A stretch of DNA of 64,000 nt from Yuukianura sp. NJ FZ-2021 (Eukaryota), in contig CM102287.1 of assembly GCA_046563655.1 (NCBI GenBank), positions 4,278,001 through 4,342,000 on the forward strand, written 5' to 3'. Below, piece after piece: positions 179 through 60,300 of the stretch. The notes beneath the pieces were generated by a model that saw only the letters and a list, made by a program, of their open reading frames with translations, made no database searches and was not told the DNA's origin. The position numbers were made by a program, and so were the translations under genes. Each line of letters begins with the position of its first letter. Position 1 is the first letter of the stretch.

Positions 179-3100
179 TAACTTCGAGACGCTTGGAAAT
201 TGCACCAAAAGACTGCACGTCCCTTAAGTACCCCTCGGCCGTGGGTACTTGCATGTTCAACTTGAAGTGCAAAGAAAAACTTGGAATTGTCATCGGAGCC
301 TGTGTCGATCGTTTTCTGTTTGGAGCTTGCTGTCACTTTCCCGCCACTGAAGAACCAATCACAACTCCCGGTTCCAAAAATGTTTCGGTTTCAACCGAAG
401 GAGTTTTTCCGACGCCGCAGTTCGACTCATCTCGTCCAGCAGTCGACGCAGAGCCTATCGCTGCTTCTCCAGCGTCTAATTCAGTTCAAGCGTCGTCTTC
501 ACTACAACTTCCTGACGCTTACAGCCCAAATCCAGATCCTCCAGCACTGCCTTCTACCAATCACAGTCCTGCTCTTCTTCCTGTCACTCTGGAAAGTGTC
601 CAAGATGGCAGCACTCATCACTCTGTCGGTAACCATGGAAATGTTCATCATCAGCCTCATGTCCATAGCGGACTATTTTTCCCTCTGGAGTATACGACAC
701 TAACATATGGAGGAGGAGCAGAAAGTGGAGGTGGAGGAGGAGGAGGAGGTGGAGGAGGAGGAAGGGATCCCAGCGTTGTTGAGTATACGACGCTAAACTA
801 TGGAAATGGAGGAGCAGGGAGGAACCCCAGTGACGAATTCTGGAAGGGAGCCCTTAAACCGCCCTCTTTCGACGGCTGGAAGACTCAGTCCGAAAAAATC
901 TGGACAAGCGCTGAAGTGACTACTGAAGAACCTACGAGATTGTCAACGTTTATGTACGTGAATGGCCCAGATGGAACCCTGTACGAAACCACCCCAAACC
1001 CCACGCCCGAAACCCCACCGCCCCGAAACCCCGTTCCGGGGTTTCAGCAGTCAGGATATCCTGACCCCTGGAAAAGTTCAGAAGTTCTGACCTCCGATAC
1101 AGACAAACCCCTTTGGAACAGTCAAACTTCGCCGACTGATGACCCCTTGACAACACAAGACCCGAACCCCACGGGGTCTGAACCCCTTTGGTCCATTGTT
1201 CATCAGTTAGTTCCGTACCCCCCGTCACCCCAAACCCCACCACCCGAACTCCCGCTCAATTCAGACGAACTCTACACGGTTCTCAGTGCTTCGGAACCAG
1301 TCGGATCCCTAATGGAAAACCGAATTCAAGTCATCCCGCCCCCAGAAAATCGTCCGCCTCCAGAAATTCTCCCGCCTGTAAAAAATCGTCTCCCCACAGA
1401 AATTCTCCCTCCCGTAGAAAATCGTCTGCCTCCAGAAAATCTTCCACTTTCACCCTGGAAGCTAAGTACAGAGAGCAGTGTAAGTGAAACGCTGAAACCC
1501 ACGACGCAGCCCCCTCCACGCATGCCTACAAGCAGACCTTGGGCATCCTCTACTTACCAAATCCATACTTTCAAGTATCCAGCATTGCCATTAGACACAA
1601 CTCCGTCTCCTGGAATTGGTGGTCTCGTGACATGGCATGGAGCTGCAGAAGAGCCAGCTACAAAGGAATCAACGCAGCAGAGTACCACATCTACTACGAC
1701 TGCGCAGACTCAGAAGATTGTAACTGCCCAAATAGAAAAAGTTACAATTCCGCAGACACAGAAAGTTTCAACTGCACAAATCGAGAAAATTACAACAGCG
1801 CAGACACAAACTACACCGATGACGATTCCGTCAAAATTCCAGCCAATTTCCAGCTCAATCCAAAATGTCGCTTCGACTCCGACATTTTTGAAAACAACGG
1901 CAAAACCAGTGGCGGAAATTACAAAACCGCCAACATCAACAACTACAAGTACAACAACGACAACAACCAAAAAGCCCACGACCACTTCGGCCACAACAAC
2001 TTTGCCACCAAAACGAAGAACGGTACCACCTTCACCGAAACCACCAAAAGTTACGACATCTCCACCCCCGAAGAAACCCGACTTTATACCACAAGCGGGA
2101 ATTCTCCAATCCGAATTCGATTCTAACATTGACGATTTTGTAAATCAGGTCAGCTGAGGTCAACTTTTTGGCAAAAGGTCAAAGGTCAAGGTCAATTCTA
2201 CATAATTTCTGTTTGATGTTCAGGTTGTACAAAATTTGGCGGGAAGTTTGGATAACTTAGACCTAGATGAAGTCATCCTCCACTCTCCGCTTCCTTCTAC
2301 GTCACCTTCAACAAAACTAAAAGACGATGACCACGACACTCCGCCAACACTACATCCACTCCATGTCTTGTCTGACCCCTTATTCCCCCCATTTCCTGTC
2401 ATAGGTCAAGTACCCCTGGTCAAGCCCCCCAAAAAAGTTGTCACGACGACTGCCCGTCCCTTGGACTATCGAAGGGACTGCGGAGTTCGATCTTTTGCCA
2501 AACAAGGCCGCATCGTCGGTGGATCTCCGTCGAAGTTCGGAAAATGGCCGTGGCAAGCTTTAGTACGAGAAGCAACGTGGCTGGGCCTGTTTTCAAAAAA
2601 TAAGTGCGGCGGAGTATTGATTTCACCAAAATACGGTAAAATTATGAATAACTTTTCGGAAATTTTTGTCAAAATGTTCATTTTGACTTTTGAATGATTT
2701 TGATTTTTACTTTTTTTTTGCTTTTAATAAAGTTTTGACTGCTGCTCACTGTCAACCGGGATTCTTGGCGACGTTGACCGTCGTCCTTGGAGACTTTGAC
2801 ATTTCGTCTGAAACGGAAGGCGCTGGCGGGACAATTGGAAAAAATTCAAATTCGGTTACAAAAAATGTCCGTCGTGTGATCGTCCATCGTGACTACAACG
2901 CACAAACTTTTGAAAACGACATTGCACTGCTGGAACTTGAGTCAGCAGTGGAATATCAACCACATATTGTTCCCATTTGTCTTCCCATGGACAACGAAGT
3001 CCATGTTGGTCAACAAGCATTCGTCACTGGTTGGGGAAGGCTCAAATATGGTTAGCAAGAGATGGATTGACCTTGAAATTTTGAATTTGACCTTGACCTT

Positions 3101-57300: not shown

Positions 57301-60300
57301 AATGTGGATTAAGGGTCGTTAAGGTCCTTAAGGGCCCTGTTCTGCTCAATGTTAAGGTTAACGTTATGTTTGGAACAGTTCGGACGGCTTGGTTGAAGGA
57401 AGGTTGACTGCGTAGTGTTATGGGAATTGGGAGGATCCTGAGGAAGATGAGCCCTTAAGACTTAAGGACGGTGGTTAGGCTAGGCGCCGGGGATGGGCCC
57501 TTCGGAAAACGTTACGTTGTCTTCAAAACATGCTTGCTCACACCTTAAGGCTCATTGCTTCTTAAGAGTCAAGGATTCACCGCGTATCTCTTCATAGGGC
57601 CCTTAAAAACTTCAAAGTCAGTGTCACCGTAAGGGCGAGACACTTTTTTATGAACAGATCCGCCTCTTTCTGCCGAAAAAAGTGCGGGAAGAACAAAAGC
57701 AAAAGAAAACAATAGGATGAATTAACTGTTTTCAATTTTCACACTGTGACCTCCGAAATTTTGAAAAAAGAACGAAAAGTTTGGTCCTGAAAACTAAAAA
57801 CAAAATTTTTCCAGCTATCTAAAATATTCGAAAATTTTTGAATGGAGTAAAACTTATACACCTTCCAATTTTTTTTAAATTAAGGAACGCTGTGACCTTT
57901 GACCTTGTTTGAAGGTCACAATCGCCCCTGAATAAAAATTTTGCTGAAAATTTTGTTTTCGTAAGCATTTCAGATTTTGGAATTTTTGAAAATAAAACGA
58001 GAGTGGGACGAGTTTTCCCGCCCAGGCGCCGGTTCGAGGCATTCCGCCTTTGGGCTTTTAAAGTAGAGATCTTAAACCATTTTGGAAAAAAATAAGACAA
58101 AAAAAGATGAGCATTGTGTCTCTGCCGACAAGAAGAAAAAGATGTGAGTTGATCTGAATCAAAAAAGTTTTTACGCAGAAGCGGTTTCCGCTGCTTGTAC
58201 TTTTTACGATGTAGAAATAAAAAAGTTTTAAGTTTTGTCTGTTGAGTGTGAGTCTGTTTGAGCGGGAAAGCATAACTTGATTTGCAGGTTGTAATGTAAG
58301 TAATAATTAATGGAAAAATAAAGTTGACCTCTAAAGTTCTCCTCAGAGGTCAACTTTTTTCTTGAGTAAAGTAAAGCAAAAAAGTTTTATTTTAGTAAGG
58401 AGGATATGTCTAATCCTCAGAATACTGTTTTGTCTGACTGAGCATCATGAGGGGAGAAACATGTGTAAAAATTTTGTAGTAAAAAGGAGCAGGAAATGGA
58501 CGCATCCATTCATATCTGAAACAAGAATCGTTTTGCCCATTGTCCTTCTTATTTTTATTACTCAATTGTTACACGTAGGCAACTTTTACTCAAAACTTAC
58601 AATGCTTGCTAACATTAAATGCTGCAGCAATGCTCCAAAATTGCTGCAGCAATGGTACAACAATACTAAGAGAGGAACTACTTCTCAAGAGAATCAGAGG
58701 GAAGAAGATCCAAGTGTCTGATTAAACTTTGATAATGAAAATGTTCATTTTGGTTCTCAGACTAAATGGAAACGTGGAAACTTTAAACTTTTTCAAGTAA
58801 AAATGGTGCTTCAGTGGCACTGTGTGCAACTTTTCAAGCACTTTGTACTTGTTCAAGTACAAAATGCTAGATTGGAGATGTAGTTGCACAAAAAAGCAAT
58901 TTGTTGACTAATTGGTGCGATTTGGTTTAGACGAGTATTCACTTGACTTAACCTGCGTGGAGTAGATCTGTTTCGGTTGAAAGTGTGCGCAGTGCTGGCT
59001 TTAAAGTAGAGGTGTTGGGTGTCGGAGATGGGTAATTGCATGGGTAATTAATTTTGAAGCTAAGGAGTAAGGGGGAGGAAAACAGAGTCACTGGAGCGTT
59101 AACTTTTTCTTGAAAGTTTCAATTTCCCGCGTTTGGGGAAGGTCAAAGGTCAAATGTGATGGGAAAATTGAATTTCGCGAAACTTTAGACGACGAATCTG
59201 CGATGTTGACGAAAAGTCTGTTCTGGATTTTTTTTTAGAAAAAAAAACGATTGATGAGCGAGCGGAATTGCATTTTGCATGGTTTCACGCCCCATTGATT
59301 TTCTCGTGACAAATTTTTGGTTTGTGTAGAATTTGGGGTTCGTTGATGAATGATGAGAACTTTATTTTTTGGAGAATTTTTTGAAATTTTGAAAAAAGTG
59401 AGTTTGGGTGGTTAAAATTTCGTTTTGTTTATGTTATGTGTGATTGTAATTGTTAATTAGAGTTAGGTTATGATTAGCCAAGGGAAAACGTTTGTTGTCG
59501 AAGGTCATGCACGCGAGGGGGAAGTTGAACCGTATCATGTTTCACTGCCTTGCTGTTGAGAATTATTTAAATTTTCAATTTTTGCGTGATTCTTTCCAAA
59601 CTGATTTTGATCTGGGAATTTTTCAAAGCCAAATTGAATCCTTTTTCTGTGGTTCATGAAGTTTGAGCTAAAAGGGCAATCCAACTAGACTGTGACTTTT
59701 TATTTCTTTTATTATGGGGTCTCTGCAGGTCCTTAACACTTCAAAAAATAATTGAACTTCAGAATTTAATTTGAAATTTTGTTTTTTGAAATTTTAGGTA
59801 AAGATTTGGTTCCAAAATCGAAGAAGCAAGTACAAGAAGTTGATGAAGGCCCAACAAGTGCCGGGTTCGACAGGGTCCAATCAACCCCCGTCAGCCCAAC
59901 AGGAAAATTCCAATGAAACGATGAGTCCACAACCGCCTGACTCCTTCCCCTCACAATCCGGTGACCTCAGTCCACCACCTAACTCAAACAACCAGTCACA
60001 GGTAAGGTCACGAGGTCAAATTTTCAAGGTCAACACCATAAAGTACACTTTTAGCCATAATTACCCCCTCATAGCTTCTTCAGGGGGTACTTTTCTATTT
60101 CCGAAAAAATTATCCGAAAATATCTGAAAAGACGTAGAAGCTCCTTAAAATATACCGGGCCAAGTCCAGGGAATTGTTTTTGAGATATTTTTGTTTGAGA
60201 TAAACTATGATCATTTCTCCAACTTTGAAGGTTGTGGACATGATGCCCCCTCATAAATTATGGAAAGTGACACGGGACAGTTGAAAACGATGACAATCTT

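Follow-up and report, generated by a model that had tools for sequence, protein, structure and literature searches.

Arrays of the hexamer TGACCT in a 64-kb window of a Yuukianura genome are best read as a small dispersed repeat shaped by splicing

The hexamer TGACCT (complement AGGTCA) occurs in short head-to-tail arrays throughout a 64,000-nt stretch of contig CM102287.1 from Yuukianura sp. NJ FZ-2021 (assembly GCA_046563655.1, positions 4,278,001 to 4,342,000, forward strand), which is referred to here as the window. These arrays are best read as a small dispersed repeat with TGACCT(T) as its unit, and not primarily as a regulatory code. We tentatively favor, at somewhat less than an even chance, a fuller explanation in which the arrays have an insertional or duplicative origin, are filtered by splicing, and are probably used by splicing in tiny introns. 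The hexamer is also the strongest nuclear-receptor motif of the window, and intron position and strand are better predictors of its occurrence than is the class of gene in which it lies.

Two kinds of known signal resemble the word. A direct repeat of the hexamer with a one-base spacer (DR1) is a site of the HNF4/USP/Svp type, and the repeat with no spacer (DR0, TCAAGGTCA) is a site of the Ftz-F1/ERR type. In U2-type introns, on the other hand, splicing relies on a branch-point sequence, yUnAy, and a pyrimidine tract, and branch sites are single and degenerate.

Abundance and architecture of the arrays

When both strands were counted, TGACCT/AGGTCA was found 149 times in the window compared with 29.43 +/- 5.46 in shuffled sequence (largest shuffle 47). 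The k-mer enrichment against a Markov background that had been proposed in a first-pass annotation of this DNA was run within the window, and the hexamer ranks first (order-2 Markov, 149 vs 27.9, z 22.9); the hexamers ranked second and third by enrichment are overlaps of it. The two strands are evenly represented (78 on the plus and 71 on the minus strand), and the mean density of about one hexamer per 430 bp is found across housekeeping genes, an orphan open reading frame (ORF) and unannotated DNA. A region from 46.4 to 57 kb that holds a homeobox gene and its neighbors is at chance level, with 5 hexamers in ~10.7 kb. TGACCT is a sharp word: the exact hexamer exceeds expectation by a factor of 5.3, and the 18 variants that differ from it at one position, at 0.37 to 1.98 times, are without enrichment. 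The highest of these variants is TAACCT (45 vs 22.7).

The 13-mer TGACCTTTGACCT, which contains the DR1 pair, has 15 exact matches, 12 on the plus strand and 3 on the minus strand (2176, 21848, and 59140), compared with a mean of 0.01 and a maximum of 1 in dinucleotide shuffles. These are the same 15 starts that had been reported in the first-pass annotation, and no others were found. Copies of the 13-mer with 0, 1, 2, and 3 mismatches number 15, 7, 18, and 35, and the corresponding values in simulated sequence are 0, 0.1, 2.0, and 21.2. The perfect copies exceed what a single old burst would leave.

Neighboring hexamers on the same strand are most often spaced 7 nt apart (DR1, 15 pairs) or 6 nt apart (DR0, 10 pairs), with 4 further pairs at 8 nt, and only 16 pairs on opposite strands lie within 40 nt of one another. 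The pattern is that of a direct-repeat array, as had been described earlier. The hexamers group into 81 clusters, 46 with a single hexamer and 35 with more than one, and the tight arrays number 25 (20 pairs and 5 triplets). Larger modules also recur. The exact 19-mer triplet TGACCTTGACCTTTGACCT has four occurrences, and the 17-mer TGACCTTGAAATTTTGA has two exact copies and one with a single mismatch, each followed by further half-sites; when up to three mismatches are allowed, TGACCTTGAAATTTTGA has 11 matches compared with 1.08 in shuffles. Two-block arrangements, in modules of ~30-45 nt, have 8 matches and none in shuffles, and modules of 17 to 41 bases are shared by unrelated loci. Alignment of the array-bearing introns gives a common architecture consisting of a pair, a spacer of 4-12 nt, and a second pair. 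Because the 17-19-mers and the two-block modules recur, the copies are not independent of one another. An nhmmer profile of the modules had no significant match in the window that lacked the exact hexamer, and thus decayed copies are not hidden there in large numbers. Tandem Repeats Finder also reported periods of ~24 nt over the arrays, and an Rfam scan of the whole window had no matches.

In their head-to-tail units and periods of 6-7 nt the arrays are like micro- and minisatellites; the two 13-mers in the BBS5 gene lie 21 nt apart, and other introns are made of other short units. Slippage alone, however, leaves unexplained why one hexamer is found at ~35 separate loci and why identical 17-19-mers recur. 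Units of GAAATTTY make up the 77-nt intron 27522-27598, and other tiny introns are also cryptically simple.

Position of the arrays in genes

Pfam families were scanned on stop-to-stop ORFs (17 + 559), and with support from tblastn 11 genes were identified: the trypsin-like proteases A, B, C, and I, MRP-S32, TMEM208, FUN14, BBS5, XPB/haywire, an LRR gene, and the homeobox gene. The 559 further ORFs had Pfam domains only for these 11 genes, and ~50 kb is without annotation. Exon-intron models were curated from homology and open frames for the six Pfam-supported genes on the plus strand (A, B, C, BBS5, XPB, and I). Every spliced frame is open, and of the 29 introns all but one, which is GC-AG, are of the GT-AG type. 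Intron curation did not extend to the LRR gene J or to genes D, E, and F.

The density of hexamers is highest in the short curated introns (<=300 nt, n=28, 2,932 nt), where it reaches 9.89 per kb. The curated coding sequence (8,898 nt) has 1.01 per kb, the rest of the window (~50.8 kb) has 2.12 per kb, and chance, as given by the shuffles, is 0.46 per kb. The word is concentrated in introns of 60-100 nt. On the sense strand of the short curated introns there are 23 TGACCT and 6 AGGTCA, and TGACCT ranks fourth by frequency among the sense hexamers of what are AT-rich sequences. Eight of the 25 tight arrays are located in short curated introns, compared with 1.33 expected if arrays were spread evenly over non-coding DNA (P 3e-5). 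If the arrays are counted as independent loci, the comparison becomes 6 introns among 22 loci and P is 8e-4, or 8e-3 with an intron space of 4.5 kb.

In the flanks of genes the counts are smaller. Hexamers are found in the 5' flanks of only 5 of the 16 gene territories, and 13 of these 18 hexamers are at genes B and C. In the 3' flanks the sense orientation is AGGTCA at genes A and B and at the minus-strand ORF 6743-7792 (9 to 1) and TGACCT at two other ORFs, which is too few for a claim. It had been noted that arrays sit just after stop codons, and this holds for two proteases: the array of gene A (window 121-3808) starts 19 nt after the stop codon at 3806-3808, and that of gene B starts at 21837, past the stop codon at 21767-21769. 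The further claim of arrays inside coding exons stands in part. One exact hexamer, at 18838, falls within what is putatively the first coding exon of gene B (ATG at 18747), but the hexamers at 23601-23627 lie in the orphan ORF 23012-23929, for which no Pfam family and no homologue were found and whose coding status is unproven.

These distributions bear on the possibility that the arrays are the binding word of an architectural or chromatin protein, or some other DNA-level signal, that spread through the lineage; a chromatin-protein word was among the readings of the first-pass annotation. In its favor are the density on both strands, the sharpness of the word, and the mild excess in coding sequence. 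Concentration in short introns together with the strand bias points instead to a filter at the level of RNA, and the 5' flanks gave no sign of a positional tie to the starts of genes. We regard a chromatin word as extremely improbable.

A splicing filter on the units

In the explanation that we favor, the units would multiply by small-scale copy-and-paste or local duplication and splicing would then act as a filter. The sense unit would pass because it combines a yUrAy look-alike (UUGAC) with pyrimidines. The sense arrays have no AG and no GT within them, the UUGAC fits yUrAy, and pyrimidines follow it; a unit without AG or GU could therefore fill a minimal intron. The sense unit probably also supplies the branch point of the minimal intron. 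In seven of the nine short introns with sense TGACCT, the adenine of TGAC is 13-36 nt from the 3' splice site. The antisense unit reads AG/GTCA, and three of the 29 curated introns start AG/GTCAG (3271, 18947, and 21039). The complement AG/GUCA thus mimics a 5' splice site that is used in this genome, which would explain why it is rare in short introns. The AGGTCA orientation would persist chiefly downstream of stop codons, within a long intron, and in intergenic DNA. The match to a nuclear-receptor half-site is probably a by-product, since few words join a branch site to pyrimidines.

The arrays are like a spliceosomal branch point in the fit of UUGAC to yUrAy, the sense orientation, the position of the adenine, and the lack of AG. 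They are unlike one in that the unit is iterated 2-6 times per intron and is also found antisense and outside introns. The first-pass annotation had named iterated YTRAY branch points in tiny introns as one of three readings, and of the three this one is the best fit given the intron density, the sense orientation of 23 of 29 hexamers, and the adenine position. As a general signal it does not hold. Sense TGACCT is absent from 19 of the 28 short introns, including all four introns of XPB, and therefore the word is not a general branch signal. Among the inspected 3' ends, 17 of 31 have any yTrAy at 8-40 nt (six of those intervals were slightly misplaced).

Several further observations weigh against the favored explanation. 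When orientation is scored per intron, the bias amounts to just nine introns with mostly sense TGACCT and two with mostly AGGTCA (binomial p 0.065), and one of the curated introns of gene A (2140-2223, 84 nt) has five hexamers that are all in the opposite orientation. The sense split over 16 gene territories, not all of which are certain, is 43 to 33 (p 0.30). Arrays are also present outside the curated introns in both orientations, and a branch role cannot alone explain their abundance; 17 of the 25 tight arrays are outside the six curated genes, where intron and intergenic DNA are indistinguishable. The intron space is underestimated, since it takes in no introns of genes J, D, E, and F; gene J lacks the hexamer over 2.5 kb. 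Other words that resemble a branch site, TTAAC among them, show less iteration. The spliced coding sequence has 11 hexamers compared with 3.59 +/- 1.73 under within-gene synonymous shuffling (P 0.001), and this mild excess is not predicted by a model in which the units are purely tolerated filler. Finally, terminal repeats, target duplications, and poly-A, which would point to a mechanism of spread, were not found in the flanks of the 25 tight arrays.

A bolder form of the splicing explanation would have the UGACCU arrays as a lineage-specific, self-propagating cassette of 30-45 nt made of iterated branch sites and needed for the recognition of tiny introns, with the same letters perhaps doubling as receptor sites. 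We consider this quite improbable. If it were true, receptor binding and splicing of the same genes would be coupled.

Some related splicing words were also observed. A U12-type origin of the introns was rejected, as their 5' ends are GTAAGT-like. The intron 27298-27378 has TAACCT-like branch-site look-alikes, with AACCTAAAGTT repeated 2.6 times at 27312-27340. CTAACCT is enriched (20 vs 4.2), in part as the branch-site-like CTAACCTTAG and in part as the complement of CAG/GTTAG 5' splice sites. A telomere-like origin was rejected as well, with only two TTAGGTTAGG sites and a spacing of 5 occurring once; the two sites, which are interstitial pairs of the insect-type telomere repeat, are at 52102 and 56678.

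Mobile-element origins

The arrays could also be relics of a conventional non-autonomous transposon, similar to a short interspersed nuclear element (SINE) or a miniature inverted-repeat transposable element (MITE), whose body is elsewhere in the genome or has decayed here. Evidence for this comes from unrelated metagenome contigs, in which a scan for the 19-mer found at least 121 loci; 84 of these are interlinked by similarity of their flanks in blastn. In these contigs several families of interspersed repeats carry the 19-mer as an internal module. Many of the foreign copies end ~200 nt downstream, past a (GACA)n-like stretch, a GC hairpin, and an ATAATAA end, and their upstream extent varies. 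No reverse transcriptase or transposase was found among the 59 ORFs of at least 110 residues that were scanned in these loci, two of which are exons of host genes, and this fits a non-autonomous element. AGGTCA remains the leading hexamer of the metagenome loci (326 vs 105.9) after masking of the seed plus 30 nt to either side of it, a count that is biased in that the loci were chosen by the array. Within the window, the excess of perfect over one-mismatch copies of the 13-mer (15 to 7) would also suit a transposon. In a number of the metagenome repeats (L002, L012, L042, L112, and others) the features over ~0-220 nt past the 19-mer follow one order: first the TGACCT array and ~90 nt of conserved sequence, next a microsatellite of (GACA)n-like type, then a GC-rich hairpin, and last an ATAATAA end. 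These repeats lack coding capacity.

Copies that are so little diverged should have kept their flanks, but none are common to the copies in the window. Apart from T-richness beside the array, the flanks of the 25 tight arrays have nothing in common, and the eight weak self-matches found by blastn of the window against itself are all without the motif and away from the arrays. The earlier statement that no shared flanking transposon body is visible thus holds within the window. Profiles of the six largest flank clusters from the metagenome loci had no nhmmer match in the window at E up to 10, and there was no blastn match between the at least 121 loci and the window. ARAGORN found no tRNA-like head in the 25 loci scanned, and the foreign repeats are unclassified. 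Additionally, intronic transposons are usually biased toward the antisense orientation and the arrays here are sense. The first-pass annotation would have been refuted by copies that proved to be pieces of a single known repeat family lacking strand bias. This is not what was found in the window, although the same array does lie inside interspersed repeats of other genomes. The array is thus mobile in other animals, which is a precedent for the mobility of the units in the favored explanation, but the copies in the window are bare. A conventional transposon is unlikely as the source of the arrays.

An introner-like origin, in which the array-rich introns were made recently by insertion of an array-bearing element with its own branch site and 3' splice region, would account for introns that consist almost wholly of units (33470-33536, 45475-45565, and a putative intron ending at 26648) and for modules that recur in the introns of unrelated genes. 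Introners are reported to create introns in diverse eukaryotes (PMC9860276), and there too a short repeated sequence fills the introns of unrelated genes. Unlike those elements, the introns in the window do not have near-identity over their whole length. They have only the arrays in common, as modules of 13-41 nt, and an alignment of nine array-bearing introns has a mean column identity of 37%. No intron-intron matches were found by blastn. The protease intron at the GWG position has counterparts in the paralogues A, B, and C, and arrays are present in A, B, and I; since this intron is common to the paralogues, it is either older than the arrays or the arrays entered it independently. Arrays are also found outside introns. 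An introner-like origin is very improbable.

The nuclear-receptor reading

The remaining alternative is that the arrays are nuclear-receptor response elements, of the DR1 and DR0 types, for the moult-timed control of protease genes. This had been put forward in the first-pass annotation as a moult-timed nuclear-receptor code on cuticle proteases. The part of this claim that concerns the form of the site stands. The half-site is exactly canonical, meeting the RGKTCA consensus, the preferred spacings are 0 and 1, and the word has been kept sharp. By hand tally the four protease territories have ~5.6 hexamers per kb compared with ~1.8 in other annotated genes. There are also precedents for receptor sites carried by repeats. 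Two studies describe Alu repeats as having spread more than 100,000 consensus DR2 elements, some of which are bound by RAR (PMC1785376), and Nr5a2 as binding its own motif within a SINE subtype in mouse (10.1101/2022.05.17.492379). As in those systems, an AGGTCA-type direct repeat would be over-represented in the window through multiplication of a repeat and not through selection site by site, and the metagenome arrays likewise lie in interspersed repeats. Unlike those systems, the arrays in the window have no Alu-like body, have spacings of 0 and 1 and not 2, are concentrated in tiny introns with a sense bias, and are not known to bind a receptor.

The association with proteases is not significant at the level of independent introns: those with at least two hexamers are 6 of 18 in the four protease genes compared with 1 of 10 for the BBS5 and XPB introns (Fisher p 0.36, six genes). 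One hexamer per 430 bp is far denser than the sites of target genes would be. Response elements would not be expected to show the bias of 23 to 6 with respect to transcription, nor to be packed against 3' splice sites, and the homeobox region and its neighbors are at chance level. We judge the nuclear-receptor reading to be distinctly unlikely, although receptors may bind some of the copies.

A full-text search of the literature turned up nothing on TGACCT as a genome-wide word or on arrays of iterated branch sites. If the dispersed repeat extends genome-wide, it would mean that a very short repeat can colonize minimal introns by resembling splicing signals. It is also a caution against inferring a hormone-response 'grammar' from motif counts alone. 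The arrays would offer a natural test of how branch sites are chosen in introns of 60-90 nt, of the purging of 5'-splice-site mimics, and of whether receptor sites borne by repeats are co-opted in arthropods as they are in primates.

Catalogue of arrays

The arrays and related features are listed in Table 1. The inverted repeat between the converging genes I and J has a predicted fold of -30.7 kcal/mol (z -6.4).

Table 1. Arrays of TGACCT/AGGTCA and related features in the window.
Position	Strand	Feature	Context
2176..2194	-	19-mer triplet TGACCTTGACCTTTGACCT	In five-hexamer cluster 2147-2194, 84-nt intron of gene A; sole intronic array with AGGTCA sense
3068..3099	+	Two-block module: TGACCT, TGAAATTTTGA, DR0 pair	67-nt intron 3051-3117, gene A, sense
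3271..3276	-	Single AGGTCA forming the 5' splice site AG/GTCAGT	18947 and 21039 alike
3827..3870	-	DR0 pair and one hexamer; AGGTCAAGGTCA from 19 nt past the stop	3' of gene A; mRNA strand AGGTCA
6007..6038	+	Hexamer and DR1 13-mer	Outside curated genes; downstream of minus-strand ORF 6743-7792; mRNA strand AGGTCA
6356..6374	+	Exact 19-mer triplet	Outside curated genes
12299..12310	+	DR0 pair	Cluster 12254-12310, unannotated region
16031..16041	-	Overlapping pair TGACCTGACCT, spacing 5	Unannotated region
16297..16309	+	DR1 13-mer	Unannotated region
18493..18506	+	Pair, spacing 8	Upstream of gene B start codon 18747
18633..18702	+	Four sense hexamers including DR1 13-mer; two-block module 18671-18709	Just before putative 3' splice site 18723; probably in an intron of the 5' untranslated region of gene B
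20835..20851	+	Two sense hexamers	100-nt intron 20811-20910, gene B
21278..21328	+	DR1 13-mer at +7; third sense hexamer at 21323	90-nt GC-AG intron 21272-21361, gene B
21837..21860	-	Three hexamers including DR1 13-mer	~70 nt past gene B stop; mRNA strand AGGTCA
23601..23627	+	Three hexamers	Inside orphan ORF 23012-23929
25211..25246	-	Three hexamers: pair with spacing 8 and one more	Unannotated region
26603..26643	+	Two-block module with the 17-mer as at 3068; four sense hexamers	Ends 5 nt before 3' splice site 26648 of the exon opening the curated part of gene C
33500..33533	+	Two DR1 13-mers 21 nt apart	Fill 67-nt intron 33470-33536, BBS5, sense
45493..45559	+	Six sense hexamers: DR1 13-mer, single, 19-mer triplet	91-nt intron 45475-45565, gene I
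45979..45991	+	DR1 13-mer	89-nt intron 45916-46004, gene I, sense
46301..46347	.	19-mer triplet facing an inverted DR0 pair	Hairpin-forming inverted repeat between genes I (+) and J (-)
57893..57918	+	DR1 13-mer and inverted hexamer	~7.3-kb intron, homeobox gene
59140..59152	-	DR1 13-mer	Same ~7.3-kb homeobox intron, opposite orientation to 57893
60005..60032	-	Third copy of the TGACCTTGAAA(T/A)TTTGA module; 17-mer 60016-60032, one mismatch	ORF with the last 14 homeodomain residues

Genes and other features of the window

XPB has 84% and 83% identity to two springtail proteins and 79-82% to insect proteins, among the 120 matches listed of 3,579. This places the organism among hexapods or other pancrustaceans, with no near relative in the collection searched. 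Protease gene A, which may be Stubble/filzig-like, has a first ORF of 678 residues with a Cys-knot-like N-terminal stretch, a long Ser/Thr/Pro-rich region, and then the trypsin domain. The GC-AG intron of gene B has the donor GCAAGT, and its 13-mer begins at the seventh base. The homeobox gene (52243-52491 and 59798-60124) has a ~7.3-kb intron that splits the homeodomain between positions 44 and 45. The orphan ORF 23012-23929 encodes 306 residues with a signal-peptide-like start and 12 Cys, and with 9 half-sites it is the densest stretch in the window.

Other repeated words were observed in addition to TGACCT. The next most enriched family across the window consists of TTTTGAAA/AAATTTTGA-type words, for example TTTCAAAA (105 vs 35.8). 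The palindrome AGGGCCCT has five sites (10 over both strands) compared with 0.4 expected, at 18887, 53541, 57331, 57596, and 61480; their contexts are unrelated, and one is inside the first coding exon of gene B. A 52-nt perfect palindrome, with an opposite-strand self-match of 100%, lies at 11973-12024, and an exact 26-nt tandem duplication at 37807-37858. At 40303-40499 there is a coding-like tandem repeat of 54 nt in 3.6 copies, located in a high-scoring ORF without a known domain.

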